Notes: a model not told the origin generated them from the sequence alone. Shown: positions 2,586-30,865, counted from the stretch's first letter. The stretch is 32,000 bases of DNA from Candidatus Electronema aureum (GCA_004284765.1 NQJD01000006.1:30001-62000); one strand, 5' to 3'. Numbers and translations: made by a program.

Positions 2586-2987
2586 ATGGTGGTCGCAGGT
2601 AAAAAAGGGCAGAATACTCGGCGCGAGGTGCGCATCCGCATCTCCAGACCAATCAGTACCTCGTTGTCTGCAAACACGGTTACGGCAGCGCAGTCCCACA
2701 GCAGCCGAGAGCACATCTCCAACGACTTTTTGCGGCTGCTGACTCGATTATTGCTGACAGCGGGTATTATTGTGCTGGTCTTGAGCCAATTGCTGCACTG
2801 GCGGATCAGCAAGGAGAGAGCAGAATTAGAACGGGTAGCAACAATCAATGTTGATGTGCGCCAAAAACATGCCAAACTGACCACTCAGCGGGACGAATTG
2901 GCATCTAAGCCGCGCATTGTCGCCTCTGCCGCTGCCAAATTAGGCTTACATCTCCCGACTAAAGAGCAGGAACATCAGCTCGATTGA
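2586..2987 (+). CDS. ftsL: FtsL-like cell division protein
   Basis: Small ORF between rsmH and the PBP gene. It has a basic N-terminus, a single TM (LLTRLLLTAGIIVLVLSQLL), then a charged coiled-coil-like stretch and ...AAAKLGLHLP. Start chosen at ATG 2586; the track ORF from 2544 would overlap rsmH. Confidence 0.6.
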   Translation: MVVAGKKGQNTRREVRIRISRPISTSLSANTVTAAQSHSSREHISNDFLRLLTRLLLTAGIIVLVLSQLLHWRISKERAELERVATINVDVRQKHAKLTTQRDELASKPRIVASAAAKLGLHLPTKEQEHQLD

Positions 2988-5002
2988 CTCAAGCAGCCAT
3001 GCGCAGACCGAGCAAAGCCAACAGTCCACCTGTGACAACGGTCAAAACCGTCCGGCAGCAGCACGAAGACCAGCAGCGCAGACGGCGACATCGCCTCTGT
3101 CTGCTGCTCGTCCTTCTAATGGCAGCGGGCGGTGGGTGGCTTTTGCGTCGCTATCTGCCTGTTCCGCTCTGGAGCAGCCACCCGCAGATTCAGCAGGAGA
3201 CTGAAACTGTCCAGCCACCGTCCACTACTCCCTTACCTGTTTTACGCGGTGCTATCTATGATCGTCACGTAGAGGAGATGGCTGTCTCGTATCAGCTGTA
3301 TTCTCTCCAAGCGCATCCAGCGGAATTGATCGATCGACAGGAAGCCGCGACGCAGTTAGCTCGAATCATCGGCATGGATGCGGAAGCGATCCTCCAAGGG
3401 CTTCAAAGTAAGGAACCGGTGACAGAGTTAGCTGTCGGCCTTGATGCCCGCCAAGCCGTAGAAGCTGAAGCTCTCCAGTTGCCCGGTATTTCGTGCATAC
3501 CAATCGAAGTGCGCTATTATCCTAATCATGCGGCGGCTGGTCGTTTGCTCGGTTTTGTCAGCGAGGGTGTCGGACTCAGCGGTGCAGAGGCATTGTATGA
3601 CGGGCTGCTCCAGCCGGGTGCGTTTCGACCTGCTGAAGCAACGGGCGTGGATTTTGCCGGGCAGACTAATCTGGGGCCACAGGCAGCTGATCTGCTGCTA
3701 ACCCTTGATCTCAAGCTGCAAAAGCGGTTAGAGCAAGAGTTAGAGGACTGGCGGCGGCGAAAAGGCGCAGCTTCTGGCTCTGCCATTGTCCTTGATCCTG
3801 AAACTGGGCGACTCCTTGCTACTGTCCGGCAGCCCAGCTTTGATCCTAATTACTTTTGGCAGACCGGTGGGCAAGCCTTACCTAAGGACGACGGCCCGCT
3901 CTTTCCCGCTGAGTTCTTTGCGGAACTGCTCGAACCTCTGCTGACGGAAGTGGCAATAGTGCAGGAGGCCGGTCTCAGCAGCAACGAATTGCCTGCGACG
4001 GTTAGCGCGCCTCATTCCGATCTCAGCCAAGAGCAGCGCGCCCACAGTTGGCAGGAGTTTGGCTTTGATCAGCCTGCACAGGATATGCTGCCTCTTGATC
4101 CCAAACAACAGCCTATGCCAGAGGAAAGTGCCGCGCGTGACGGCAGACTGAGTGTAGCAGATATTGCGGTCGGCACAGCCAGCGTACTCAACAGCGGCAA
4201 AAGGATTGTGCCTTGGTTCCTCAAAGCGGTATATGACCCTGATCGGCAGCAGTTCTTCAGCCGCGATCTCAGCAGTGTTGCACCGAAACGGCTGATCCCG
4301 CCTGCTGCTGGGGTGCAGTTGCGCCGTCAGTTGCTTCATGAATCCGCTTGGAGCAGCAAGGAAGGCTTTCTTTTTGTCAACAGTACGGCGGCGATGGTGT
4401 TTAAAAATGGCCTGAGCGAGCATCATCTCCAAGATATTTTGATCGCTGCTGCGTCGCAAGAACTGCCCCGTATTTTGCTGGTCATGGCGATTGATTACGG
4501 CTCGCTGTACCCGCAGCCGCCTGATATCGATCCAACTCAAGATCGGGAACTGTTGGCCGAGCTGGGCCACCGCTTGCTGCCTATTTTGGCCAAATATACA
4601 GCAGAGGATGCGTTATCAGATAAACCACCCGGAACAAAAAACGAGGCTAACTTGCGCCGATTTCTTCTTAGTCGGCGGCTCAACCGACACTCTGCCGAGG
4701 AAAAAAGCTACGAAGATACACCGCAGGTCATGCCTGATCTGATCGGTCTGAGTCTGCGCCAAGGCCTGCGTCGTCTCAATCCGCATAAGCTGCGGGTGCA
4801 GATCAAGGGCAGCGGTAAAATTAAGGCTCAGAAACCAGCGGCCAATGCCTCTTTAGTCAAAATTGACACGTGCGAACTCACCCTTGAACCGCCTTTTCAA
4901 CATGATACATCTGCACCAGTTGCTGCAAAGCCTACCCGCCGCATTGTCGATAAAAATACTCCACGGTCAGCCGAACGGCGAGATCAGCCGAATCACCCCT
5001 GA
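2984..5002 (+). CDS. ftsI: FtsI/PBP3-like class B penicillin-binding protein homologue (TM anchor, PBP dimerisation domain, transpeptidase-like region with degenerate motifs, C-terminal PASTA-like domain)
   Basis: Position in the dcw order. Has an N-terminal TM (LCLLLVLLMAAGGGWLL), RGAIYDRH...YPNHAAAGRLLGFV, and AIVLDPETGRLLATVRQPSFDPNYF. The C-terminal MPDLIGLSLRQGLRRLNPHKLRVQIKGSGKIKAQKPAANASLVKIDTCELTLEP is PASTA-like. TTG at 2984 or ATG at 2999 as start. Confidence 0.75.
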   Translation: MTQAAMRRPSKANSPPVTTVKTVRQQHEDQQRRRRHRLCLLLVLLMAAGGGWLLRRYLPVPLWSSHPQIQQETETVQPPSTTPLPVLRGAIYDRHVEEMAVSYQLYSLQAHPAELIDRQEAATQLARIIGMDAEAILQGLQSKEPVTELAVGLDARQAVEAEALQLPGISCIPIEVRYYPNHAAAGRLLGFVSEGVGLSGAEALYDGLLQPGAFRPAEATGVDFAGQTNLGPQAADLLLTLDLKLQKRLEQELEDWRRRKGAASGSAIVLDPETGRLLATVRQPSFDPNYFWQTGGQALPKDDGPLFPAEFFAELLEPLLTEVAIVQEAGLSSNELPATVSAPHSDLSQEQRAHSWQEFGFDQPAQDMLPLDPKQQPMPEESAARDGRLSVADIAVGTASVLNSGKRIVPWFLKAVYDPDRQQFFSRDLSSVAPKRLIPPAAGVQLRRQLLHESAWSSKEGFLFVNSTAAMVFKNGLSEHHLQDILIAAASQELPRILLVMAIDYGSLYPQPPDIDPTQDRELLAELGHRLLPILAKYTAEDALSDKPPGTKNEANLRRFLLSRRLNRHSAEEKSYEDTPQVMPDLIGLSLRQGLRRLNPHKLRVQIKGSGKIKAQKPAANASLVKIDTCELTLEPPFQHDTSAPVAAKPTRRIVDKNTPRSAERRDQPNHP

Positions 5003-7916
5003 TTCCCGCGAGGCCGGGCCGGGCTGCGTCTTTGTCGCGGTCAAAGGCGGCAAGGTCGACGGCCATAGCTTCATTCCGCACGTCATCGCTCAAGGCTGCC
5101 GCTGCGTGGTGGTTGAAGATGATACCGGCCTGATAGACGGCGCGGTTGTTGTGGTGCAGGTCAGCGACAGCCGCGCCGCCTTGGGCTGGCTGGCCGCCGC
5201 GCTGCACGATTTTCCAGCGCAAGACATGTGTCTGATCGGTCTGACCGGAACCAACGGCAAGACCACGATTTCCTGGCTGATTGAGCAGATGCTTCAGCAG
5301 AGCGGCTGCCGGGTCGGCGTGATTGGCACAGTGAACAGCCGCTGGCCGGATTCTTCCGGCAAACTGATCGCCGAACCTGCCAAGCTGACCACGCCCGGCC
5401 CGGTCGAGCTGCAAGCCACGCTGCGGGCGATGGCCGACGCAGGCGTGACGCACGTGGTCATGGAGACCTCCTCGCACGCCCTTCAGCAAAGACGGCTGGC
5501 CGGGCTGCGTTTTGATCTCGGCCTCTTCACCAATCTCACCCGCGACCACCTCGATTTTCATGGCACGATGGAGGCCTATTTCGTCGCCAAAAAGCTGCTT
5601 TTCACCCGCTGTCTCAAGGAGAAGAACGGCAAGGCGGTGATTGTCGCTGATTCTGATTGGAGCCAGCAGCTTTGCCGTGAATTGGCGGCGGAGCTGCCCG
5701 CGCTGCCGCAATTCACTTGCGGTCTTGCTGCCGATTGCACGGTTTCCGCCGCTGATTTGCAGCAGGACATCCGAGGTTTTTCCTGTACTCTCAGCTTGAA
5801 CGGTCAGACGTTTCCTTTCTCTTCCCGTTTGACCGGGCGGCACAATGTGCTGAATATCCTCGCCGCCGCCGGAGCTGGACTGGCTTTGGGCTTGGAGCCA
5901 GAACAAATTATTTCTGGTTTATCACAGGATAGGCAGGTGCCGGGCCGCTTGGAGCGGGTGCGGCTGCCGGGCTTGTCTGAGGAAATGCAGCCAGTTGTTT
6001 TGGTGGATTATGCGCATAGCCCGGATGCCCTTGAAAATGTGCTGCAAACGCTGCGTCCGTTGGCTGCCGGGCGGCTGTTCTGCGTTTTCGGCTGCGGCGG
6101 CGACCGCGACAAAGGCAAGCGGCCTCAGATGGGCGCAATTGCAGCGCAATATGCTGATTTGAGCATCGTCACTTCGGACAATCCCCGTTCAGAAGACCCG
6201 GAGACGATCATCCGCGAGGTTGCGGCGGGCTGCCGGGCCGCATGTCTGGCCGAACTTGCACCGGAGGAGCTGTCTGCCGGGCCAGAGAAGGGCTTCATCT
6301 GCATTACTGACCGCCGAACCGCTGTGCAGACGGCCTGCGCTCTGGCCGGGCCGCAGGACATCGTGCTGCTGGCGGGCAAGGGGCATGAGGATTATCAGAT
6401 CATCGGCGCGGAGCGGCATTTCTTTGATGACCGGATTGAGGCGGTCAACGGCCTGCTGCGCTGGAATATGCGGCATTTGCTTGCGGCGACGGGAGGCGCG
6501 GTCGCAGGGCAGGTACGGGGGCCTGCCTCTACGTTTGGCAAAATTTCCACTGACACGCGCAGCCTTGCGCCGGGAGATGTCTTTATCGCTTTGGCCGGAG
6601 AGAAATTCGACGGCCACGATTATGTGCATACAGCGGCAGCAGCCGGAGCCGCTGCGGTGATTGTTCATAGAGAAGCACCGGTTCCTGCCGATGTGCTGCT
6701 TGTTCAAGTAGAGGATACTCTGCAAGCCTTGCTTGATCTGGCCGCGTATCGCCGCAGGCTGCTGGGAAAAAATTTGACTGTGGCTGCAATCACCGGCAGC
6801 TGCGGCAAGACCACAGTCAAGGAACTGGTCGCGGCGATTTTCAGCCGCCATTTTGCCGAGACGAAAACCGGCATCAATCCGGTGCTGAAAACACAGGGCA
6901 ATTTCAACAATCTGGTCGGAATGCCGCTCTCGCTGCTGCCGGTTGCGGCGGGCCATCGGGCGGCGGTGCTGGAGATGGGCATGAATCATCCCGGTGAAAT
7001 TGCCCGGTTAGTCGCGTCAGCGCAGCCGGACATCGCCTGCATCACCAACGTCCAAGCCGCGCATCTGGAAGGCTTAGGCAGCATTGAGGGCGTGGCTCAA
7101 GCGAAAGGCGAGCTGTTCGCGGGTATGCGACCAGACACAGTCAGTGTGATCAATCTTGATGATCCGCAGGTGCGCAAGCTGCCGACGAATTCAGCACGAA
7201 TCATTGGCTTTGCGGTCACACCGGAAGGAATCAACCTCAAGCCGGAAGTCAGCGCAATGAGCATTGCTGATCTGGGTGAAAAGGGAATGCGCTTCACCCT
7301 GTGCATCGGTAGCTGGGAGCAGGAGCTTGCGATTTCTCTGCCCGGCCTGCACAGCGTCAGCAACTGCTGCGCTGCCGCTGCGGTGGCTCATGCTGCTGGC
7401 ATTGCGCCGGAAACCATCGCCACCGCTCTTGCTGCCCAGCAGGGCGTGACTGACAAACGAATGCAGCTTGTCACCCTGCCTAATGGCGTTCATGTGCTCA
7501 ACGACTGCTACAACGCCAATCCCGGCTCAATGTCCGCAGCTTTGAAGACTCTGCGCGGGTTCGGCAAAGACTGCAAACATATTGCTTTGCTCGGCGACAT
7601 GCTGGAGCTGGGCGCATCTTCAGCCGAGGCGCATGAGAAGATTGGCCGTGAAGCGGCGGAATTGGGCTATGATTTGCTGGCTATAGTTGGCAACTTTGCG
7701 GCTCACGTTGCGCAAGGAGCGCGGCAGGCAGGCATGGCTGCGGACAAAATTCATCTTTTTGCCGACACCGGCGCGATGGCCGCTTGGCTGCTTGGCGAAA
7801 TTGACAAAAAACAAATTACGGCAGGCGACTGGCTCCTGCTCAAAGGCTCGCGGGGAATGCGGATGGAAAAGGTGCTGGAGGCTATGCAAGCTCGGCTGAA
7901 CGGAGAGGCCCGCTGA
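4902..7916 (+). CDS. murE/murF: fused UDP-MurNAc-L-Ala-D-Glu:meso-DAP ligase (MurE) / UDP-MurNAc-tripeptide:D-Ala-D-Ala ligase (MurF)
   Basis: One uninterrupted ORF. The N-half has the MurE P-loop GLTGTNGKTT and TSDNPRSEDP (DNPR, the meso-DAP type motif). From about nt 6468 (WNMRHLLAATGG) it reads as MurF, with ITGSCGKTTVKE and NDCYNANPGS. Start set at ATG 4902 (MIHLHQLLQSL...); the track start TTG 4863 is an alternative. Confidence 0.9.
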   Translation: MIHLHQLLQSLPAALSIKILHGQPNGEISRITPDSREAGPGCVFVAVKGGKVDGHSFIPHVIAQGCRCVVVEDDTGLIDGAVVVVQVSDSRAALGWLAAALHDFPAQDMCLIGLTGTNGKTTISWLIEQMLQQSGCRVGVIGTVNSRWPDSSGKLIAEPAKLTTPGPVELQATLRAMADAGVTHVVMETSSHALQQRRLAGLRFDLGLFTNLTRDHLDFHGTMEAYFVAKKLLFTRCLKEKNGKAVIVADSDWSQQLCRELAAELPALPQFTCGLAADCTVSAADLQQDIRGFSCTLSLNGQTFPFSSRLTGRHNVLNILAAAGAGLALGLEPEQIISGLSQDRQVPGRLERVRLPGLSEEMQPVVLVDYAHSPDALENVLQTLRPLAAGRLFCVFGCGGDRDKGKRPQMGAIAAQYADLSIVTSDNPRSEDPETIIREVAAGCRAACLAELAPEELSAGPEKGFICITDRRTAVQTACALAGPQDIVLLAGKGHEDYQIIGAERHFFDDRIEAVNGLLRWNMRHLLAATGGAVAGQVRGPASTFGKISTDTRSLAPGDVFIALAGEKFDGHDYVHTAAAAGAAAVIVHREAPVPADVLLVQVEDTLQALLDLAAYRRRLLGKNLTVAAITGSCGKTTVKELVAAIFSRHFAETKTGINPVLKTQGNFNNLVGMPLSLLPVAAGHRAAVLEMGMNHPGEIARLVASAQPDIACITNVQAAHLEGLGSIEGVAQAKGELFAGMRPDTVSVINLDDPQVRKLPTNSARIIGFAVTPEGINLKPEVSAMSIADLGEKGMRFTLCIGSWEQELAISLPGLHSVSNCCAAAAVAHAAGIAPETIATALAAQQGVTDKRMQLVTLPNGVHVLNDCYNANPGSMSAALKTLRGFGKDCKHIALLGDMLELGASSAEAHEKIGREAAELGYDLLAIVGNFAAHVAQGARQAGMAADKIHLFADTGAMAAWLLGEIDKKQITAGDWLLLKGSRGMRMEKVLEAMQARLNGEAR

Positions 7917-8995
7917 TGTTTTACAATCTGATCTACCCGCTGCACGAATATTTCAGTGCGCTCAACGTCTTCCGCTACGTGACCTTCCGCTCCATCGGCA
8001 GCGCGCTCACCGCCTTTCTCATTCTTTTCCTCTTTGAACCGGCCTTCATCCGCTGGCTGAAGCGGCAGCGAATTGGTCAAGTGGTGCGTGATGACGGCCC
8101 AGAAAGCCATTTCAGCAAGCGCGGCGTGCCGACAATGGGCGGCCTGCTGATCCTCGTCGCCATCGCTGTCGCCACGCTGCTCTGGGCCAATCTGCTCAAC
8201 GGCTTGGTTTGGGTCTGCCTGCTGCTGACATTGTTCTACGGACTGATCGGCTCAGTGGATGATTGGCGCAAGATAACAAAGAGCAGCAGCAAGGGGCTGT
8301 CGGCACGCGGCAAGCTGCTGCTGCAAATCCTCGGCGGCCTGATGGTCGGCCTGTATTTGCATCTGCATCCGGCATACGATGGCGGCCTGAGTCTGCCTTT
8401 CCTCAAGGGCGTGCGACCTGATCTCGGCTGGTGGTATCTTCCTTTGGCTGTGGCCGTGATTGTCGGCGCGTCGAACGCGGTCAATCTCACTGACGGACTG
8501 GACGGCCTCGCCGCCGGGCCGGTGATGATTTCCTCCTCAATTTATCTGATTTTCTCCTACGTGGTCGGCAATGCTGCTTTGGCGCATTATCTCCAAATTC
8601 CGCATGTGGCGGGTGCGGATGAGGTGGCCGTCTTCTGCGCGGCAGTGGCTGGAGCCTGCCTTGGCTTTCTTTGGTACAACGCCTATCCGGCGCAGGTTTT
8701 CATGGGCGATGTCGGCTCATTAGCCTTGGGCGGCGCGTTGGGCACGGTGGCGATCATCATCAAGCAGGAAATCCTGCTAGCCATTGTCGGCGGAATTTTC
8801 GTCATGGAAGCCCTGTCAGTGATCATGCAGGTAGCCTATTTCAAAGCCAGCGGCGGCAGGCGCATCTTCCTTATGTCGCCGTTTCATCATCACTTCGAGA
8901 AGAAGGGCTGGACAGAACCCAAGGTGGTGGTGCGCTTCTGGATTATTTCGATCATCCTTGGCTTGATGGCTTTGGCGACGTTGAAGTTGAGGTGA
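7916..8995 (+). CDS. mraY: phospho-N-acetylmuramoyl-pentapeptide transferase
   Basis: Contains MFYNLIYPL..., VDDWRKI, NAVNLTDGLDGLA, MGDVGSLALGG and SPFHHHFE. The ATG overlaps the murF stop (TGATG at 7914-7918). Confidence 0.95.
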   Translation: MFYNLIYPLHEYFSALNVFRYVTFRSIGSALTAFLILFLFEPAFIRWLKRQRIGQVVRDDGPESHFSKRGVPTMGGLLILVAIAVATLLWANLLNGLVWVCLLLTLFYGLIGSVDDWRKITKSSSKGLSARGKLLLQILGGLMVGLYLHLHPAYDGGLSLPFLKGVRPDLGWWYLPLAVAVIVGASNAVNLTDGLDGLAAGPVMISSSIYLIFSYVVGNAALAHYLQIPHVAGADEVAVFCAAVAGACLGFLWYNAYPAQVFMGDVGSLALGGALGTVAIIIKQEILLAIVGGIFVMEALSVIMQVAYFKASGGRRIFLMSPFHHHFEKKGWTEPKVVVRFWIISIILGLMALATLKLR

Positions 8996-9007
8996 ATGAG
9001 AAAAGAA

Positions 9008-9107
9008 TAGGAGTTACGCAGTTGATTTTGTTCAACTGACGATTTGTGCAGTAAAAAAACAATTTGCTGTAATAATTGAACTTCTAATTTCAACTGCGTA
9101 ACTCCTA
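9008..9107. repeat. 100-bp palindromic element with perfect 18-bp terminal inverted repeats (MITE-like element, IS-end structure or REP-like terminator)
   Basis: TAGGAGTTACGCAGTTGA at 9008-9025 and its exact reverse complement at 9090-9107, separated by a 64-bp AT-rich spacer. Starts 13 bp after the mraY stop. Confidence 0.6.
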
Positions 9108-9319
9108 GCATAAAGATTGATAGGCTCAAGCGTATAAATCGGTTTCGTCAAATACGCCCGAACAGCGTCACGGATGATGGCAGTCTTTGCCTCAAACCAA
9201 GAAATTCCTTTGACAAAACAATGATATTCAATGCGGAGAAAAGCCCGTATTGCCAGTTCGATGTGATTGCGTTGCGCGTTTTCTGACCGGGCCTGACAGC
9301 GTTCAATCCCGCAAAATTG
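9108..9319 (-). pseudogene. C-terminal remnant of a DDE transposase (IS701/IS4-like by recollection), 5' part missing
   Basis: The minus-strand frame reads QFCGIERCQARSENAQRNHIELAIRAFLRIEYHCFVKGISWFEAKTAIIRDAVRAYLTKPIYTLEP with no start codon. It is cut at 9319/9320 by the IS30-family end. The same frame stays open through the hairpin element to a TGA at 9032-9034, so the 3' limit is uncertain. The family call is from memory of ...CG.E.CQ.R....QRNHI..L...AFL.LE tails and is unverified. Confidence 0.4.
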
Positions 9320-10366
9320 GTGAATTCAAGTTCCCGTTAAGTAGTCTCGCCAAAATAGCTCTTTTGGTGTTTTAAATCCAAGAGATTTTCGAGGCCTGTT
9401 GTTGAGCTTTTCCATAATAGCTTTGACATCCTGTGTGTCCAGCGTGTCAAAGCTCGCTCCTTTTGGGAGGTATTGCCGTATAAGTCCGTTCGTATTTTCG
9501 TTGAGCCGCGCGTTGCCAAGCCTGATACGGATGCGCGAAGAAGCAGTCTGCCTGAAGAGTGCTTGCGAACTCCTGATGCAAGGCAAATTCCTTGCCGTTA
9601 TCGCAGGTTAGGGTATGAACTTGGGCTTGGCAGGGAAGAAGGGCTTAGACAAGTGCCTGATTGACGCTATCTGCCCGTTTATTCGGGGCAAGAGCGATAA
9701 CTCGCGTCTTCCGTTCTGCCAAGGTGACAAGAACAGCTCCTCCCCGACGTATCCACCTCCCAATCACCAATCCGAGAACGTTCTTCAACTATGCTGGGGC
9801 GATGATCTATCGAGACCCGGTTTTTAATCGTGCCCCGTCGGTCAGTGCTGCCATAACGTTTTCTTCTTTTTTTTCGGCAGCGTAGATGGATATACAGAGT
9901 TCCTCCTTGCTGCTTGTCATGGGCAACATGTTGATAGATTCGTTCATGGCTGACCTGAAGATTTTTGGTTGCGGAGAGCCAGCCGCTGATGTGTTCAGGA
10001 CTCCAATCTTCGCAGAGAAGATCATTGACAATATGCCATATTTCTTCAGAAATTTTCAGCTTGGCCTTTTCTTGGCGGCGTTGACCAGACAGTTGTTGTG
10101 CCTGCTGGGGCCAGCCGCGTTCACCGCAATTACGCTGCAATTCTCGACCGATAGTTGATCTGTGTCGGCCAAGCTGCAAGGCTATCGCTGATTTCTGATG
10201 CCCTGCTTGCTTTAACGCGTAAATTTGGTTACGCTCTGCTTCGGTGAGTTGTGTGTAGTTTTTCATCCGTGCTCCTCTTGCTTGCCGGTAAGAAATGATC
10301 CATCATACTACCACAACTCACTTTTCTTACAACCAGACAAAAGTTGCACTTACAAGTTGAATTCAC
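9320..10366 (-). mobile_element. IS30-family insertion sequence (about 1.05 kb), decayed
   Basis: Terminal inverted repeats GTGAATTCAAGTT (9320-9332) and the complement of AAGTTGAATTCAC (10354-10366) match at 12 of 13 positions. They enclose an IS30-type transposase reading frame. No obvious target-site duplication. Confidence 0.75.
9326..10266 (-). pseudogene. IS30-family transposase, disrupted by two frameshifts and one in-frame stop
   Basis: The N-terminal part is intact (MKNYTQLTEAERNQIYALKQAGHQKSAIALQLGRHRSTIGRELQRN...WSPEHISGWL...RIGDWEVDT). The frame breaks near 9743-9752. The middle part reads in another frame (GGAVLVTLAERKTRVIALAPNKRADSVNQALV*ALLPCQAQVHTLTCDNGKEF) with a TAA at the complement of 9645-9647. 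A second frameshift lies near 9495-9500 within QRGSTENTNG. The C-terminal part (LIRQYLPKGASF...NNRPRKSLGFKTP) is the track ORF 9326-9586. Confidence 0.85.
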
Positions 10367-23422: not shown

Positions 23423-23801
23423 TGTTCCTCAGATGAAAACTTCGGTGTCGGAATTCTTCTTATCTCCTTTAGCATGTTTGCCTACAAAAAGCATCTTTTT
23501 TCGGGCGACGGAAGATAGGGTGCCTTGTGCAAATACCGCACTTGTGTCCTCCGACAACAGGCTGCCATCACGTTCTTTTCTGTTGATAGCAAGAGTATTT
23601 TTTGGTACGATGACAGTACCGTAGCTTGGGATGAATGCAATGTTTGCGATCAGATTAAGCTGCCAAGAGTTCCTGCGCGCCGCCTGAAGTTTTCAGCGTA
23701 CCTACTATAGCTTTCTTTACGCTGGGCTGATTATTATAACCCAAGTTGTGCAATATCTCTTGTCGCAGCGGAAATTCAGTTCATCCGAAAACGCATCTGT
23801 C

Positions 23802-23835
23802 CGAGCATATTTGGCCAAGCCAATTTATATGCTCG
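23802..23835. promoter_or_regulatory. palindromic operator-like site upstream of the kinase-like/deacetylase pair
   Basis: CGAGCATAT (23802-23810) and ATATGCTCG (23827-23835) form a perfect 9-bp inverted repeat. The spacer contains the palindrome TTGGCCAA. The site ends 38 bp before ATG 23874. Confidence 0.35.
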
Positions 23836-23873
23836 ATCCTATCAATTTTTATGCAACGGGGTAAGTCATAAAT

Positions 23874-25130
23874 ATGTCAAATTCTATTCATGCTTCAGTT
23901 GGGGAGCAGGGAAAGAATCGCCCTGATGATGTGCGACAGGTTTTCTTGTTGTTGAATGATATCCGCACAGAACCTTTAGCGGTAAGTGATCAATGTTCGC
24001 CAGAGCTGATTCAAGCGATTAAAGATTTTCAGAAAAATTTCTTGGCACAGCCTGACGGTCGAATTGATGTTGGCGGCAGGACTTGGGAAAAACTCATTGC
24101 TACCGCCGCAGGATCAAGTAATCACGTCAACTCGCTACCACCGGGCAATGAACAAGACAAAGAATTTGACATTGAATTTTCAACATTAAATTTGGAAGAT
24201 AATGACAAATATCAATTTGAGTTCAAAACAACAGGAACATCGATAGGATTCAAAGTAGCGATTGACGGTGGAAGAAAAAGCGGCCTTTTTCTTCCTGAAA
24301 ACTCAGCAACGCATCTTGAAGGAGAAGTTGTGTCCTACAGACTTTCAAGATTACTTGGGGTCAGTGAGATATTCAACCCAGTTGCGTATTACACCTTAAA
24401 AGCAAATGCAATCCGTCGCTTCAAACTGATGCTCAGATCTGACGAAAAAAGCAAATGGCGGCGGGAAAATACCGAGACTCTTTTAAAGAGAATCGACGAA
24501 AGTCCTTCGTTTATGCTTGGAATCTATAAATACAGGCATAAAAGAAAATCACAGCCAGTCGATAAATTAATCATTTCCAACGGCCTCAATCGGCAGCACA
24601 GGATGGCCCAGCTGATCAATGCTGAAGGTACTATGCCTTCAAAAAAAGCAATCACTTTGGAGAAGGTATCTCCTGATAAACCTGAATATCCCATACCAAA
24701 AGAAAGTGAATCTGTTTTAGCCAAGCAGTTATCAATTATTTTCACCATCGATATGCTGACCGGGCAATGGGACAGATTCAGTGGAGGAAATATAGAGGTT
24801 TATGCGCATAAGGACGGTCGTCTTCAGTTTGTTGCACGAGATAACGGCGGCAGTCATTTGCTTTGGGGATGGAATTGGTTTAATAAATACCGTAGTTGGC
24901 TGACGAGATTTGACTCTGACTTGATTCAAGAACTTAGGCTAATGAAGACCTTTTTAGATGGCAAGTCAGACGAATACAACGGAATCGTATCCACAGTTAG
25001 TTTTGCGGATATTGTCGGTTTTACCAACGAAAGAACATTCAAGGCGTTCAAAGAAAAACTTGATATTTTTCTTTCTGATCACGTACAATCCTGTGAGGAT
25101 AGATTCGGAAAAAAATGCTACTTCAGCTAA
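23874..25130 (+). CDS. two-domain protein: N-terminal peptidoglycan-binding-like module + C-terminal Fam20/PI3-4K/HipA-like atypical kinase fold
   Basis: The N-terminal 74 aa are shared with the next gene. The C-terminal region has EGEVVSYRLSRLLGVSEIFNPV and IDMLTGQWDRFSGGNIEVYAHKDGRLQFVARDNGGS (catalytic-loop-like D-R..N plus a DNG metal-binding-like motif). No signal peptide. AT-rich codon usage. Confidence 0.55.
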   Translation: MSNSIHASVGEQGKNRPDDVRQVFLLLNDIRTEPLAVSDQCSPELIQAIKDFQKNFLAQPDGRIDVGGRTWEKLIATAAGSSNHVNSLPPGNEQDKEFDIEFSTLNLEDNDKYQFEFKTTGTSIGFKVAIDGGRKSGLFLPENSATHLEGEVVSYRLSRLLGVSEIFNPVAYYTLKANAIRRFKLMLRSDEKSKWRRENTETLLKRIDESPSFMLGIYKYRHKRKSQPVDKLIISNGLNRQHRMAQLINAEGTMPSKKAITLEKVSPDKPEYPIPKESESVLAKQLSIIFTIDMLTGQWDRFSGGNIEVYAHKDGRLQFVARDNGGSHLLWGWNWFNKYRSWLTRFDSDLIQELRLMKTFLDGKSDEYNGIVSTVSFADIVGFTNERTFKAFKEKLDIFLSDHVQSCEDRFGKKCYFS

Positions 25131-25176
25131 CGCTGTAAGCAACAAGATGCAATAATTTTAACCGAAGGAGGAGAAA

Positions 25177-26010
25177 ATGCCCGTTTCTATAACAGCTTCA
25201 GTGGGAGAACGTGGTGAGAATCGCCCGGATGATGTGCGGCAGATTTTCTTGTTGCTGAATAAAAACAGAACGCCACCTTTAGTAGTAAGCGATCAATGCT
25301 CAATAGAGCTGATTCAAGCAATTAAAGAATTCCAGAAAGATTTCCTAACCAATCCTGATGGACGGATTGATGTCGGCGGCAGAACTTGGAAAGAACTAAC
25401 CGAATCAAATGAAGTGCATGAAAACGAAAAGAAAGTGCTTCTGTCCTTTGATGATGGCCCTCTTCCTGAAGATGCTCTTAATTCCATTCTTGCCACCTTA
25501 CAATCTCATCATATCAAAGCTGAGTTTTACGTTCTCGGTGCTGAAGTAGATCGTCATCCAAAGGCTGCAAAAAAAATAGCTGATCAAGGCCACAGTCTCC
25601 AGAATCATTCCTACAGTCATATTGATCTGTCTAAGGCGAGCAAAGAGGTCGTGATGACCGAGTTGCGGAAAACTCAAGAAAGCATCAAAAATGCTGCTGG
25701 AGTAACAGCAACGAAAGTTCGCCCGCCCTACGGCGCAGGTGGCTGGCCTGCCCATCATGATCCTGAGTTGGCTCAGGTTGCAGCCAGCTTGTCCTTGAAG
25801 ATTGAAAACTGGGATATCGATACCGAAGACTGGAAGACTCCAAAAGGTATCGGATCGACCAAGCTGACTATGATCAAAAAGCAGTTTACTCAGCAGCAGA
25901 GCAAGCTGCTGCTGAATGTGCTGATGCACGTCCAGAGCGAGACCGCCAGAGACCTTGAGAGTTTTATTGCCCAGCTGAAAAGATGGGGGTACTCCTTTGC
26001 CAAACCGTGA
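25177..26010 (+). CDS. two-domain protein: same N-terminal peptidoglycan-binding-like module + NodB-type polysaccharide/peptidoglycan deacetylase
   Basis: The NodB motifs are intact: LSFDDGP, NHSYSH and VRPPYG. The N-terminal 74 aa match the previous gene at 57 of 74 positions (hand count). No signal peptide. The RBS GGAGGAG lies before ATG 25177. Confidence 0.8.
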   Translation: MPVSITASVGERGENRPDDVRQIFLLLNKNRTPPLVVSDQCSIELIQAIKEFQKDFLTNPDGRIDVGGRTWKELTESNEVHENEKKVLLSFDDGPLPEDALNSILATLQSHHIKAEFYVLGAEVDRHPKAAKKIADQGHSLQNHSYSHIDLSKASKEVVMTELRKTQESIKNAAGVTATKVRPPYGAGGWPAHHDPELAQVAASLSLKIENWDIDTEDWKTPKGIGSTKLTMIKKQFTQQQSKLLLNVLMHVQSETARDLESFIAQLKRWGYSFAKP

Positions 26011-26386
26011 ACAATTCCGGCGGCAATTCTTTGCCACGCTACTGCTGGCGATCCTGCTGATCAGTTGCGTGGCTCAAGCGCAGCCTCTCTTGGAGCAGGC
26101 CAGTAGCAGCTACAAGCTCCGCAAAGACTACGCCAGCTTAGAGGTGATTCATCGCCACTTAGCTCTTGGAATGGCCCGCCCTGCTGTGGAAACCTTGCTC
26201 GGCGAAGCAGATTATTCCCCAATTGAAGGGCAATATTACTATCTCTCCGACCGACGGGAAAGACAGAAAGATGCAGGAGAAGAGCAGGGAGAAGCATCTG
26301 TGGGATTGGTGCTTGATTACCGGAATAAGCAAGGTGAACTGACAGACGCGCTACAGACCTTCTGGCTTGGGGTACTTGGTGAATAA
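25997..26386 (+). CDS. small lipoprotein, BamE/SmpA-OmlA-like
   Basis: The TTG start overlaps the deacetylase 3' end by 14 nt. The signal peptide carries a lipobox (LLLAILLISC). GMARPAVETLLGEADYSP...YYYL resembles the BamE/SmpA fold pattern. Confidence 0.6.
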   Translation: MPNREQFRRQFFATLLLAILLISCVAQAQPLLEQASSSYKLRKDYASLEVIHRHLALGMARPAVETLLGEADYSPIEGQYYYLSDRRERQKDAGEEQGEASVGLVLDYRNKQGELTDALQTFWLGVLGE

Positions 26387-26391
26387 ACAGC

Positions 26392-27234
26392 ATGAGATGT
26401 TTACGCACCACCACCCTTGGTTATTCCCCCTGTCCTAATGATACCTTTATTTTCTGCGGTCTTGTGCAAGGCAAGATACCCCTCAGCCATGTCTGCTTTG
26501 CCGAGCCGCAGCTTGAAGATGTAGAAACCCTCAACAGCTGGGCAATGCAGGGGAGCTTGGACGTAACCAAGCTCTCTGTTCATGCCCTTGGCTATCTGCT
26601 GGATTCATATACCCTGCTTGACTCTGGCGCAGCCTTAGGCCGAGGCTGTGGGCCGCTCTTGGTGACAGCGCAAGCAACAGCACCACAAGCTAAGGGCGAT
26701 CTCGCCGCATGGACTATCGCTATTCCAGGGCAATACACCACCGCTGCTTTACTCCTCCGGCTTTTCCTACCCAAGTCATGCCGTACTGTTGTAGTCATGC
26801 GCTTCGACCAGATCATGGACGCAGTGGTATCAGGCCAAGTAGATGCAGGCGTGATTATTCATGAAAGCCGCTTCACCTATCAAGAGCGCGGCCTCCTCTG
26901 CGTGCAGGACTTAGGCGTATGGTGGGAGCAGGAAACCGGCTTGCCTCTTCCGCTGGGCTGTATTGCCGCTCGAAAAGACCTCGCCACAGAGGTACTTCGA
27001 GAAACCGAACAGGCCATTACGGAAAGCATTCGTTGGGGTTACGCGCATCTGGATGAATGCCGCAGCTACATCCGTCAACACGCCCAAGAGATAGACGATA
27101 AGGTACTTACCAGTCACATCAATCTGTATGTGAATGATTTCTCTCTGCGGTTAGGCGAGGAAGGTCGAGCGGCAATACAGGAGCTGCTGCGTCGAGGCCG
27201 TGCAGCTGGGGTCTTTACTATACCTCTCGCATAA
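26392..27234 (+). CDS. mqnD: 1,4-dihydroxy-6-naphthoate synthase (futalosine pathway)
   Basis: The N-terminal LGYSPCPNDTFIFCGLVQGKI is typical of MqnD. The length and the VitK2-biosynthesis-type fold family fit. Starts 5 nt after the lipoprotein gene. Confidence 0.8.
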   Translation: MRCLRTTTLGYSPCPNDTFIFCGLVQGKIPLSHVCFAEPQLEDVETLNSWAMQGSLDVTKLSVHALGYLLDSYTLLDSGAALGRGCGPLLVTAQATAPQAKGDLAAWTIAIPGQYTTAALLLRLFLPKSCRTVVVMRFDQIMDAVVSGQVDAGVIIHESRFTYQERGLLCVQDLGVWWEQETGLPLPLGCIAARKDLATEVLRETEQAITESIRWGYAHLDECRSYIRQHAQEIDDKVLTSHINLYVNDFSLRLGEEGRAAIQELLRRGRAAGVFTIPLA

Positions 27235-27486: not shown

Positions 27487-28167
27487 TTATGCAGTTGTCT
27501 TCTTCGAGAGCTTCTCAGCCTCACGGGCAGCAAGGTGCTGTCTAGCTATTGCCAGTTCAGCTTCCAGATCAGTGGTGTCTGCCTCGGGCAGTAGCTTCAA
27601 GTTGAATATCTCCCCTTCCACTTCCATGACCCATAACCGGGCATAATAGAGCGTATCCTCGGTCAGATGGGCAATAACAATTATGCCAGTTAGTAAAGGA
27701 TGATTGTTAGTGACATTAGCTCCCCGTGTGCGGCCATGCTCCAGTTCAACTTTAAGGCCAAACTGGTATTCCCAAATATAGCCAAGCCCACCGTCTGCTT
27801 TTGGCAGAAAGTCATTAAGAACATCTGTCTTGAAGGGTTCTTGATTATCAGGCGTAAATGTGGTGCCCTTGACAATTTCATCCTTCAGCAGCTTTACGAT
27901 GATCTCAGTTTCGTTCTTCGGAACAACATTGGGAGTGTTAACTCCGTTATAGAAGTCAGGATCTGGCCGGCAAGCAATCTCGCTCTCGATCATACCTCCC
28001 CACAATCTATTAAATCCAGCTGCTAAACAGAAGTTATTGACCTCGCTTCTGCTCATAAAACTTGTGCAGACAGTCTCTCCGCTGTCAATCCTTTTCAGAA
28101 TATCAACAAGTTCGCTGATGGATACTTGAATGTCACATGCCACTGGTGTTCCTGCTGCGTCGCCCAT
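27487..28167 (-). CDS. hypothetical protein with C-terminal DUF5661-like segment
   Basis: Start moved to ATG 28167 (MGDAAGTPVAC...) because a perfect SD AAGGAGG (complement of 28174-28180) lies 6 nt upstream. The C-terminal GLKVELEHGRTRGANVTNNHPLLTGIIVIAHLTEDTLYYARL resembles the E.EH...IA.AHL.ED..YY..L motif recalled for DUF5661 (phage-associated). AT-rich. Confidence 0.55.
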   Translation of the reverse strand: MGDAAGTPVACDIQVSISELVDILKRIDSGETVCTSFMSRSEVNNFCLAAGFNRLWGGMIESEIACRPDPDFYNGVNTPNVVPKNETEIIVKLLKDEIVKGTTFTPDNQEPFKTDVLNDFLPKADGGLGYIWEYQFGLKVELEHGRTRGANVTNNHPLLTGIIVIAHLTEDTLYYARLWVMEVEGEIFNLKLLPEADTTDLEAELAIARQHLAAREAEKLSKKTTA

Positions 28168-28827
28168 TTTCACGCCTCCTTGTTTTAAGTGTATGATGTG
28201 TAAAAATGTCTTTGCAGCTCGATTAAAGCAGCACAAGACAAGATCAATATACTGTTTCATAATCCTGATAGGCACTTTTGCCTTTTCTCTATCAACTATC
28301 AACGACATCCTTCTTTCATGGTACATGCTCGCCAAGCAAAATGTCAAGTGAAAACTTCCTTTGTGTGCAATATATAGAGAAACAGGCAGGTTCAGCAGCC
28401 GTCATGCGCTGACTCCTCTGCGGTTCCATTGCTGTCACTCCTGATCATCCTTCATCTTTTTTCCCCTGCCGCATGACAACAACACCATGCAGACAGCCTG
28501 CCTCCTTCCCTCCCACCGATCATGCCTCGTACATCGCAGAGATGTGTACTCGTACATCTCGACAATGTGCACGAGATAATCTACCAGAGCTATGCGAGTA
28601 ACTTTTCAATCTATCCTACCAATATTCTTCTTGACAACGCCCCTCAGCCGCTTTACCGTGGACGCTGAAGTTATTTCCGCAGTCATGCAGAACAGTTAAT
28701 TTTACACTGGAGATGGCGTGACGGGCGATGAGGTGCATATCCACGATTACGCTGCCTTGCTGAATATGGTCAAGAATTGGTACGCCGGAAGAGTGGTGGA
28801 TGTACTGGAGGTGAAGACAGGGAACTG

Positions 28828-30028: not shown

Positions 30029-30865
30029 ATGGCCCGCATCGGCATGGTCAATTACATCAACATGGCACCGATTTATGAGGTATGGAAGGAGCAGGTGCGC
30101 CGTCCTGACTGGATCATGCTTGATGCCCCGCCTGCGCAGCTCAACCGCCTGCTGGCTGCTGGTTCGATTGATCTTGGCTTTGTCTCGGCCTACGAGTACG
30201 CTGCCCGTCCGTGGCTGTACCGACTCATGGCTGATCTGTCCATCTCCGCTACCGGGCCAGTGGGCAGCGTCTTCCTTTTCTCCTCCGTGCCACCAGAGCA
30301 GTTAGACGGCAAGTTAGTGCTGCTCACCGGCCAATCCGACACCTCGGTCTGCTTGCTGCGGCTGATCTTAGAGGAATTCATCAAGGTCAGGCCGCGCTAT
30401 GTGCGAGGGGAAATCTTTGCTCCGCACACGCCTGCTGAAAAGCCTGCGGCACTGCTGGCTATTGGCGACGAAGCCCTGCGCCTCAATGCCGCGCCTGATC
30501 CACGCTATCCAGTACAGATTGATCTGGGAGAATGCTGGCATCAGCAGACTGGCCTGCCTTTTGTTTTTGCGGTCTGCGCGGTGCGCGAGGACTTTCTTCA
30601 GGGTAACACAGAGGTAGCGCGGGAGATACAGCAAACGCTTATTAGCTGTCGAGAACAGGGCTTGGCCCGCTTATCGGAAATCTGCACCAAGGCCGCAGCC
30701 CGCATTCCCCTGATGACTGCGGCAGCTTGCCTGCGCTATTTCCAGTCGATAGAGTACGACCTTAGCCCGATCAAGCAAGAGACCTTGGCGCGGTTCTTTG
30801 CGCTGCTGATCCAGCGTGGTGAGGCCAGTCCTGCCGCCCTGCCGCTGAAGCTCTTTCCCTGCTGA
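30029..30865 (+). CDS. mqnA: chorismate dehydratase (futalosine pathway)
   Basis: MARIGMVNYINMAPIYEVW... is the typical MqnA N-terminus. It is a paralogous fold to MqnD and is followed by ubiE/menG and ubiX. Confidence 0.8.
   Translation: MARIGMVNYINMAPIYEVWKEQVRRPDWIMLDAPPAQLNRLLAAGSIDLGFVSAYEYAARPWLYRLMADLSISATGPVGSVFLFSSVPPEQLDGKLVLLTGQSDTSVCLLRLILEEFIKVRPRYVRGEIFAPHTPAEKPAALLAIGDEALRLNAAPDPRYPVQIDLGECWHQQTGLPFVFAVCAVREDFLQGNTEVAREIQQTLISCREQGLARLSEICTKAAARIPLMTAAACLRYFQSIEYDLSPIKQETLARFFALLIQRGEASPAALPLKLFPC

Follow-up and report, generated by a model that had tools for sequence, protein, structure and literature searches.

Within a 32,000-nucleotide stretch of the genome of Candidatus Electronema aureum (GCA_004284765.1 NQJD01000006.1:30001-62000; hereafter the window), positions 23874-26386 hold two enzyme genes whose products share a 74-residue N-terminal module and then continue into unrelated heads, one with a kinase-like fold (gene A) and one with a NodB-type deacetylase domain (gene B), together with a lipoprotein gene that overlaps the second of them. 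The reading that we prefer, to which we give a probability of roughly 45%, is that these genes form a wall-anchored, envelope-tailoring enzyme set of the cable-bacteria lineage that is aimed at the peptidoglycan sacculus. What is observed directly are the domain identities, the folds, their conservation, the gene overlap and the exchange of modules; that the proteins are periplasmic, what their substrates are, what the lipoprotein does and how export proceeds are matters that we infer.

All three open reading frames (ORFs) were verified and lie on the plus strand, with gene A at 23874-25130 (418 residues), gene B at 25177-26010 (277 residues) and the TTG-started lipoprotein gene at 25997-26386 (129 residues). 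The initial annotation of this DNA, drawn from the sequence alone, had described a module of 74 residues common to the two enzymes with nothing alike beyond it, and BLASTP bears this out: residues 1-74 of gene A (23874..24095) and of gene B (25177..25398) align without gaps at 57 of 74 identities (E=2e-36), and nothing significant is found past residue 74. In nucleotide sequence the two genes are alike from the ATG onwards, the resemblance fading after codon 74, and this stretch was recovered independently as a 224-nt direct repeat of 77% identity (23871-24094 versus 25174-25397). The two copies differ by 22 synonymous and 17 non-synonymous codon changes, which suggests that the duplication is not recent.

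The placement of the module among PG_binding_1 domains (PF01471), likewise proposed in the initial annotation, holds through its relatives, the copies in the window themselves lying below the family threshold. The orthologous module in a 573-residue protein of Ca. Electronema sp. KV (L001) reaches 25.9 bits, above that threshold, and more distant relatives score 24-37 bits. A profile built from six modules and searched against 1.84 billion representative proteins retrieved 2170 of these; among the 78 highest-ranking, 71 match PG_binding_1 (best E-value 3e-39). Nearly all partner domains among these 78 carriers are peptidoglycan-active (muramidase, M15 families, SLT, CHAP, M23, VanY, pesticin and GH108), with NodB in just 2 of them and the kinase-like head solely in a cable-bacteria protein (P0002); in other phyla the relatives of the module precede muramidase, M15, M23, CHAP, SLT, lysozyme and glucosaminidase heads, usually in proteins that lack a signal peptide. 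The profile matches and the peptidoglycan-active partners together argue that the shared module is a genuine, if divergent, PG_binding_1 domain, predicted to bind the wall. In the AlphaFold2 model of gene A its helices fall at residues 17-28, 43-54 and 69-81, with a low predicted local distance difference test (pLDDT) score of 50-67. As a rule, proteins of this subfamily have no signal peptide: a simple hydropathy test detected no hydrophobic segment at the N-terminus of 146 of the 149 best carriers, and in 39 of the 149 the module runs from residue 1. Many of these same carriers (P0030-P0178) hold 2-7 internal copies. No match to the module was found in phage genomes.

The head of gene B (25417..26010) was annotated initially as an intact NodB domain, and rightly so. 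It matches Polysacc_deac_1 (PF01522) at 103.5 bits against a cut-off of 23.1 (9.7e-30, residues 82-205), and all five catalytic motifs are legible in the translation: FDDGP with D92-D93, HSYSH with H144/H148, RPPYG as R182-P-P-Y185, D215-T-E-D-W219 and L249-M-H251. Matches at the level of the domain to the PdaB, PgdA and NodB models of NCBIfam range from 1e-25 to 1e-32, and all ten NCBIfam equivalog models lie far below their cut-offs, the best being PdaB at 110 bits against 237. Gene B is thus predicted to be a NodB/CE4 deacetylase with intact motifs that is no equivalog of a named deacetylase. It resembles PgdA and PdaA/PdaB in its CE4 domain with five catalytic motifs, and differs from them in having neither signal peptide nor membrane anchor, in carrying an N-terminal PG_binding_1 domain and in being coupled to a BamE-like lipoprotein. 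The matches to gene B in phage genomes are generic NodB ones only.

The head of gene A (residues ~90-418; 24141..25130) has no match in Pfam, NCBIfam, PADLOC or PHROG, and the family to which it belongs comprises just 29 clusters in 5.8 billion proteins. With an alignment of that family, AlphaFold2 models residues 90-418 at a pLDDT above 90, and a Foldseek search of PDB structures places Fam20C and Fam20A in the top ranks (5yh2, 5yh0 and 5wrs; E ~1e-6), next PI4KIIalpha (4hnd; 7e-5) and then HipA/HipT-type kinases, the Fam20C/A and PI4KIIalpha matches all having a probability of 1.0 and template modeling (TM) scores of 0.40-0.51. A library of viral structures likewise returned kinases only. 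The kinase-like region of ~330 residues that the initial annotation had suspected is therefore well supported at the level of the fold. Among the 30 aligned head sequences D300, R301, N306, D323, N324, G325 and G326 are invariant, forming the motifs D300-R-x4-N306 and D323-N-G-G, and K118 and E149 are nearly so; this is the pattern that would be expected of an active kinase-like enzyme. We take the D-R...N and D-N-G motifs to be comparable, as a resemblance of motifs only, to those that serve catalysis and metal binding in Fam20 and PI4KII. No sequence match to Fam20 was found, Pfam at E up to 1 gave PG_binding_1 only for gene A, and a profile search of PDB sequences with the head returned no kinase. 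Gene A has no match in phage genomes.

The likeness to the Fam20 secretory-pathway kinases (the protein kinase Fam20C and the xylose kinase Fam20B) and to PI4KIIalpha thus lies in the fold (E 1e-6 to 7e-5) and, for the Fam20 proteins, also in the fact that most members of the gene A head family are exported; the head of gene A is unlike them in being bacterial, in its fusion to a peptidoglycan-binding domain and in the lack of detectable sequence homology. Fam20B is a glycan kinase (PMC7948968). Other members of the bacterial family, those of the signal-peptide type, neighbour genes for glycosyltransferases, large NodB-domain proteins, OmpA/BON proteins, YkuD proteins and VTC/DUF4956 proteins, a company that hints at an envelope or glycan role. 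At one such locus (L074 7001-9713) the genes after a signal-peptide member encode VTC (polyphosphate-related) and DUF4956 proteins, and those on the flanks encode OmpA/BON proteins and one ankyrin-YkuD protein; the VTC neighbour may point to a phosphate donor other than adenosine triphosphate (ATP). At another (L078 1-7074) a signal-peptide member lies 1-5 kb from two very large NodB-domain proteins of 750 and 1245 residues, the longer of which has a PGA_cap domain, and this is a second, independent association of the kinase family with deacetylases.

The history of the pair can be read in part from these relatives. Approximately 22 of the 29 kinase-head clusters begin with a signal peptide, 8 of those with a lipobox cysteine, and three look truncated; the PG-binding module stands in the position of the signal peptide in the cable-bacteria clade only. 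It follows that the head was probably exported ancestrally and that the module replaced its signal peptide. The cysteine pair of the exported relatives, Cys407/Cys415, is kept in the signal-less cable-bacteria clade. The pair had initially been called richer in AT than its neighbours, and the guanine-plus-cytosine (GC) contents of 0.411 for gene A and 0.464 for gene B against 0.536 for the window agree with this, with the amendment that the low GC is chiefly that of the kinase gene, in the window as in L001, the NodB operon elsewhere having the GC of its flanks. The kinase gene is a later, lower-GC addition in few lineages.

Once in place the module seems to have been traded between neighbours. 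Of all the modules compared, none is closer to that of gene B than the one in gene A beside it, and in both the lineage of the window and its nearest relative (L067) and a further lineage (L072) the kinase module is most like the NodB module of its own genome (77-78%). Between orthologous kinase modules identity is only 55-65%, though the kinase heads are 64-69% identical, and this discordance between module and head points to repeated exchange or gene conversion between neighbouring genes; it indicates that a module was exchanged with that of the neighbouring gene at least twice, independently in window/L067 and L072. The nearest relative, a metagenome contig of the Joint Genome Institute (JGI), is 95.6% identical over 23797-27233, homology ending at both sides. 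Between it and the window the synonymous and non-synonymous codon differences in the three genes are 34/30, 18/9 and 8/2, a synonymous excess which suggests that all three have been kept by purifying selection.

The lipoprotein gene (25997..26386) starts with TTG inside the 3' end of gene B, in an overlap of 14 nt that the initial annotation had already noticed. This arrangement is conserved: of 21 loci, 16 have the TTG 14 nt ahead of the stop codon of NodB, with a conserved TGGGG just 5' of it, 3 instead have an ATG 20 nt ahead of that stop, and in the other 2 the 3' end of NodB is disrupted. The conserved overlap is strong evidence for translational coupling, and deacetylase and lipoprotein are probably made together. 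The lipobox of the window protein is LLIS-C24 (MPNREQFRRQFFATLLLAILLIS-C24; L-I-S-C24), its cysteine is invariant in the alignment, and lipoboxes are found in nearly all orthologues of this tiny family of 7 clusters. The AlphaFold2 model (pLDDT 87) matches BamE and the type VI secretion system (T6SS) immunity protein BtiO of Bacteroides fragilis with a Foldseek probability of 1.0, the BamE match having an E of 4e-3 and a TM score of ~0.5 when normalised to the target and 0.37 when normalised to the query; with Pfam an orthologue gives a weak BamE match (E 0.03, below threshold) and the window protein none. Lipobox and alpha-beta domain resemble those of BamE/SmpA-OmlA, from which the present family differs in that its gene always follows and overlaps a NodB gene and has no context of the beta-barrel assembly machinery (BAM). 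Export of the lipoprotein by the twin-arginine (Tat) pathway, perhaps carrying the deacetylase with it, was considered on account of an FRRQFF motif (25997-26068) and is not relied on, the twin arginine being present in only ~7 of 20 orthologues.

A scan for the module in one genome per species gave 62 loci, of which the closest 19 belong to Candidatus Electrothrix and Electronema genomes, Desulfobulbaceae metagenome-assembled genomes and three contigs binned as Gammaproteobacteria/Thiolinea. The recurring order is NodB, lipoprotein, a third head of ~490 residues and an ORF of 202 residues. Wherever a cable-bacteria locus extends to the 3' end of NodB, the lipoprotein gene follows, and the NodB-lipoprotein pair is a conserved core across Electrothrix and Electronema. 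Three types of head are thus borne by the module in cable bacteria, kinase-like, NodB and the third, and each corresponds to one cluster of orthologues that spans species (19 NodB, 13 of the third head and 2 kinase). One copy of the module is present in the Electronema type and two in tandem in the Electrothrix type, alike in NodB and third-head proteins (L005-L022). The kinase-like gene is rarer, being confined to the window, its near relative L067, Ca. Electronema sp. KV (L001) and three metagenomic lineages, and it lies directly 5' of NodB in all five lineages that have it. The third-head protein is 557-695 residues long and combines one or two modules with a head of ~490 residues that is highly conserved; its gene and the 202-residue ORF are at 7600-9321 and 9339-9947 in L001 and are present also in L008, L009, L012-L017, L019, L021 and L022. 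No match to the third head was found among PDB sequences, Pfam or PHROG. Its invariant cysteine and histidine motifs (DCADL...GHxLVV) give an impression, and only that, of a cysteine peptidase or NlpC/P60 protein. For the 202-residue ORF the match is to phrog_33083, an endolysin family of PHROG (E 1.4e-10). The NodB-lipoprotein pair is found also on contigs assigned to filamentous sulfur-oxidising Gammaproteobacteria, namely a 210-kb contig of Thiolinea sp. (L023) and two of bin LOGT_bin.0151 (L011 and L020, where the NodB 3' ends are disrupted), either by horizontal transfer or by mis-binning.

That neither enzyme has a signal peptide, as first annotated, is a property of the sequence and does not depend on the choice of start codon: in-frame stops lie 12 nt (gene A) and 18 nt (gene B) 5' of the ATG, with 9 and 15 nt intervening, so longer N-termini are not possible. 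The surroundings are those of the core chromosome, the window containing the dcw cluster, NtrYX, BamA, an acyltransferase, an epimerase, mqnA and MobAB, and the 20-kb neighbourhoods in four cable-bacteria genomes contain differing housekeeping genes. In the 32-kb window no phage, holin, VgrG, Hcp, PAAR, adaptor or other secretion genes were found and there are no tRNAs, and phage and T6SS families are absent from the 25 most frequent families listed for the four neighbourhoods. PADLOC and PHROGs gave no matches for the three window proteins. A phage origin was considered and dismissed, the module and gene A having no phage-genome match, gene B only its generic ones, and a single weak viral contig being the remaining trace. 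Outside cable bacteria, signal-less proteins that join the module to a hydrolase are mostly found among unrelated genes. In two Sphingomonas genomes (L030 5727-11472 and L033) a protein joining the module to an M15_4 peptidase lies directly 3' of VgrG-DUF6931-Fha; it too is signal-less, and is followed by a 195-residue ORF with no family match.

In the preferred reading of a wall-tailoring set, each enzyme would bear one or two copies of the divergent PG_binding_1 anchor, which would keep it on the wall. The deacetylase would strip N-acetyl groups from the wall glycan, and the lipoprotein, made together with it, would probably bind or regulate it on the periplasmic side. Gene A would be an exported kinase of the Fam20/PI4KII-like type whose signal peptide was replaced by the anchor module of the operon, the module later having been exchanged or homogenised with that of the neighbouring gene, and it would phosphorylate a wall-associated glycan or, less likely, a protein. 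The outcome would be a chemically tailored envelope. Several points weigh against this interpretation. Sec, Tat and lipoprotein signals are absent from both enzymes, and because no enzyme of the set carries a signal peptide the passage to the wall is difficult to account for; a periplasmic kinase would also have no obvious supply of ATP. Kinase activity of gene A is a prediction for the family as a whole, the match to the kinase fold being moderate (TM ~0.43-0.5) with no match to Fam20 at the level of sequence. For PG_binding_1 the modules of genes A and B reach 17.3 and 15.6 bits, under the Pfam cut-off of 23, and the role of the lipoprotein is deduced solely from the gene overlap and the fold. 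Finally, the window is without the third head and the 202-residue gene that are common to most of its relatives, so the set is not invariant. A more specific and more ambitious form of the interpretation seems improbable to us as it stands: that the set is lineage-specific and reaches the wall independently of Sec, that it includes the first peptidoglycan-tethered Fam20-like kinase, acting on wall glycan or on a periplasmic envelope component, and that the coupled BamE-like lipoprotein controls the deacetylase or helps to export it.

The absence of signal peptides also speaks for each of the rival explanations. The initial annotation had likened the pair to polymorphic effector or endolysin-like families, and an antibacterial effector and immunity set, in which the enzymes would pass into adjacent cells through a T6SS or another contact-dependent route and the lipoprotein would be the periplasmic immunity protein of the deacetylase, has the gene arrangement on its side. 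As in the T6SS pairs Tae/Tai and Tlde1/Tldi1 and those of the BtiO type, a signal-less wall enzyme is followed directly by a gene for a small periplasmic lipoprotein, here overlapping and with a BtiO-like fold; 146 of the 149 module carriers have no signal, the M15_4 relative stands directly after VgrG-DUF6931-Fha in the two Sphingomonas genomes, the kinase gene is low in GC, and the flanks vary between genomes. The present genes differ from such pairs in having a single lipoprotein gene beside two enzymes here and beside as many as four in relatives, in heads that are orthologous and conserved across two genera and not variable between strains, and in the lack of nearby VgrG, Hcp, PAAR, adaptor or other T6SS genes, both in the window and among the families listed for the four neighbourhoods. 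Deacetylation of peptidoglycan is moreover normally protective and not lytic, and no link between cable bacteria and type VI secretion was found in the literature searched. These considerations make an effector set doubtful. Of what had been proposed, a common targeting module on different heads stands, there being three heads in an endolysin-type architecture, and the logic of polymorphic effectors or toxins is not supported, because the diversity lies between paralogous genes and not among alleles at one locus. The annotation had also named a routine, housekeeping-like module without diversity of heads as the finding that would speak against it; the NodB-lipoprotein pair does behave like a vertically conserved lineage set, which goes part of the way.

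Signal peptides would not be needed if the enzymes acted in the cytoplasm, where the kinase, the deacetylase, the third head as a putative peptidase and the endolysin-like enzyme might process recycled or imported wall fragments, with the module binding muropeptides and the lipoprotein merely co-regulated. ATP for a kinase is available there only, no N-terminal extension is possible, the flanking genes are housekeeping ones, and the mix of enzymes loosely parallels peptidoglycan recycling with its sugar kinases, NagA-type deacetylase and LD-carboxypeptidase. We nevertheless consider such a pathway unlikely, given that export is overwhelmingly the norm among relatives of the kinase head and that the cable-bacteria clade retains their cysteine pair, that NodB/CE4 and PG_binding_1 domains usually work outside the cytoplasm, that the tightly coupled partner is a lipoprotein, and that relatives of the module sit on hydrolases of polymeric peptidoglycan. 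Less likely still is a domesticated lysis cassette of the endolysin type, which would gain access to the wall through membrane damage or an unrecognised holin and serve autolysis, vesicle formation or filament breakage. The heads are a deacetylase and a kinase fold, non-lytic and not bond-cleaving hydrolases; the window and the families listed for the neighbourhoods yielded neither holins nor phage structural genes, gene A, gene B and the lipoprotein have no PHROG match, gene A and the module have no counterpart in phage genomes, with one weak viral contig, and the genes are conserved chromosomal members of a lineage coupled to a lipoprotein whose folded BamE-like domain is unlike a spanin. 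What such a cassette would explain is the design itself, a signal-less protein with an N-terminal PG_binding_1 domain, reused on varied heads, and a C-terminal catalytic domain, as in modular Gram-negative endolysins and autolysins, of which we take the KZ144/EL188-type endolysins to be examples; it would also accommodate the match of the 202-residue operon member of relatives to a PHROG endolysin family (1.4e-10), and a small lipoprotein gene that overlaps the gene upstream of it loosely recalls spanin genes.

The remaining features of the locus concern its expression and its borders. Gene A is preceded by an intergenic gap of 451 bp (23423..23873; GC 0.439) that contains no ORF of at least 64 residues, in agreement with the non-coding gap of ~450 bp first noted; homology with L067 by blastn reaches only the last 77 bp of it, from 23797. 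A riboswitch or other RNA element in the gap was dismissed, since a search of Rfam with E up to 1 gave no match. The spacer between genes A and B (25131..25176, plus strand) is 46 bp long, with a strong Shine-Dalgarno sequence, GGAGGAG, at 25167-25173, and a scan of the plus strand found no terminator in it. Beginning 5 bp past the lipoprotein stop is an MqnA-like gene of the futalosine pathway of menaquinone synthesis (26392..27234, plus strand; VitK2_biosynth 9e-80), which lies inside the block shared with L067 (ending at 27233) and is not at that position in other cable-bacteria loci. The tight junctions, the strong Shine-Dalgarno sequence before gene B and the absence of a plus-strand terminator are consistent with a single transcript; the counts from promoter and terminator scans did not exceed those expected from shuffled sequence. 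Flanking repeats that might mark the borders of a mobile element were sought and none was convincing.

Elsewhere in the window, a second MqnA-like (VitK2_biosynth) paralogue at 30029-30865 lies less than 4 kb from the first (26392-27234), which is the one joined to the transcription unit of the lipoprotein. A low-GC ORF (0.44-0.48) with a DUF5661 domain is found 3' of mqnA (27487-28347, minus strand); L067 has an MT-A70 methylase and a BglII-type endonuclease in its place, which makes this a variable spot. Just past mraY, beside a dip in GC to 0.42 at 9001-9500, an ORF of 195 residues with HTH_38 and HTH_32 matches (9679-10266, minus strand) resembles the N-terminal fragment of an IS30-type transposase. 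An ORF of 1017 residues (4863-7916, plus strand) with two full sets of Mur ligase domains is an apparent MurE-MurF fusion, and an FtsI-like ORF (2984-5002, plus strand) has PBP_dimer and PASTA matches, the latter unusual for a Gram-negative lineage, while no transpeptidase domain was listed for it at E up to 0.001.

The design of a module with interchangeable heads is already familiar from wall enzymes. Three points are new here. One is a small family with a Fam20/PI4KII-like kinase fold and intact catalytic residues, consisting of 29 clusters for which there is no Pfam, NCBIfam or PHROG model, and another is a conserved NodB-lipoprotein gene set, usually followed by the head of ~490 residues and an endolysin-like protein. 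Neither the operon nor the kinase family was found described in the literature searched, which included cable bacteria in combination with deacetylase, peptidoglycan and type VI secretion. If the kinase-fold family is active, it would mean phosphorylation of wall-associated glycans or proteins outside the bacterial cytoplasm, for which we know of little precedent. The third point is a more general puzzle of export raised by the mostly signal-less PG_binding_1 subfamily (146 of 149), whose members would have to reach the wall outside phage lysis. Should the Sec-independent form of the interpretation be true, it would add both a new chemical modification of the Gram-negative wall and a new route into the periplasm for signal-less proteins, in organisms whose envelope carries conductive fibres, and a demonstration of either wall phosphorylation or a new export route would raise the rank of the finding. 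Cable bacteria have an unusual shared periplasm, and dedicated wall-tailoring enzymes would for that reason be relevant to how their envelope is built.

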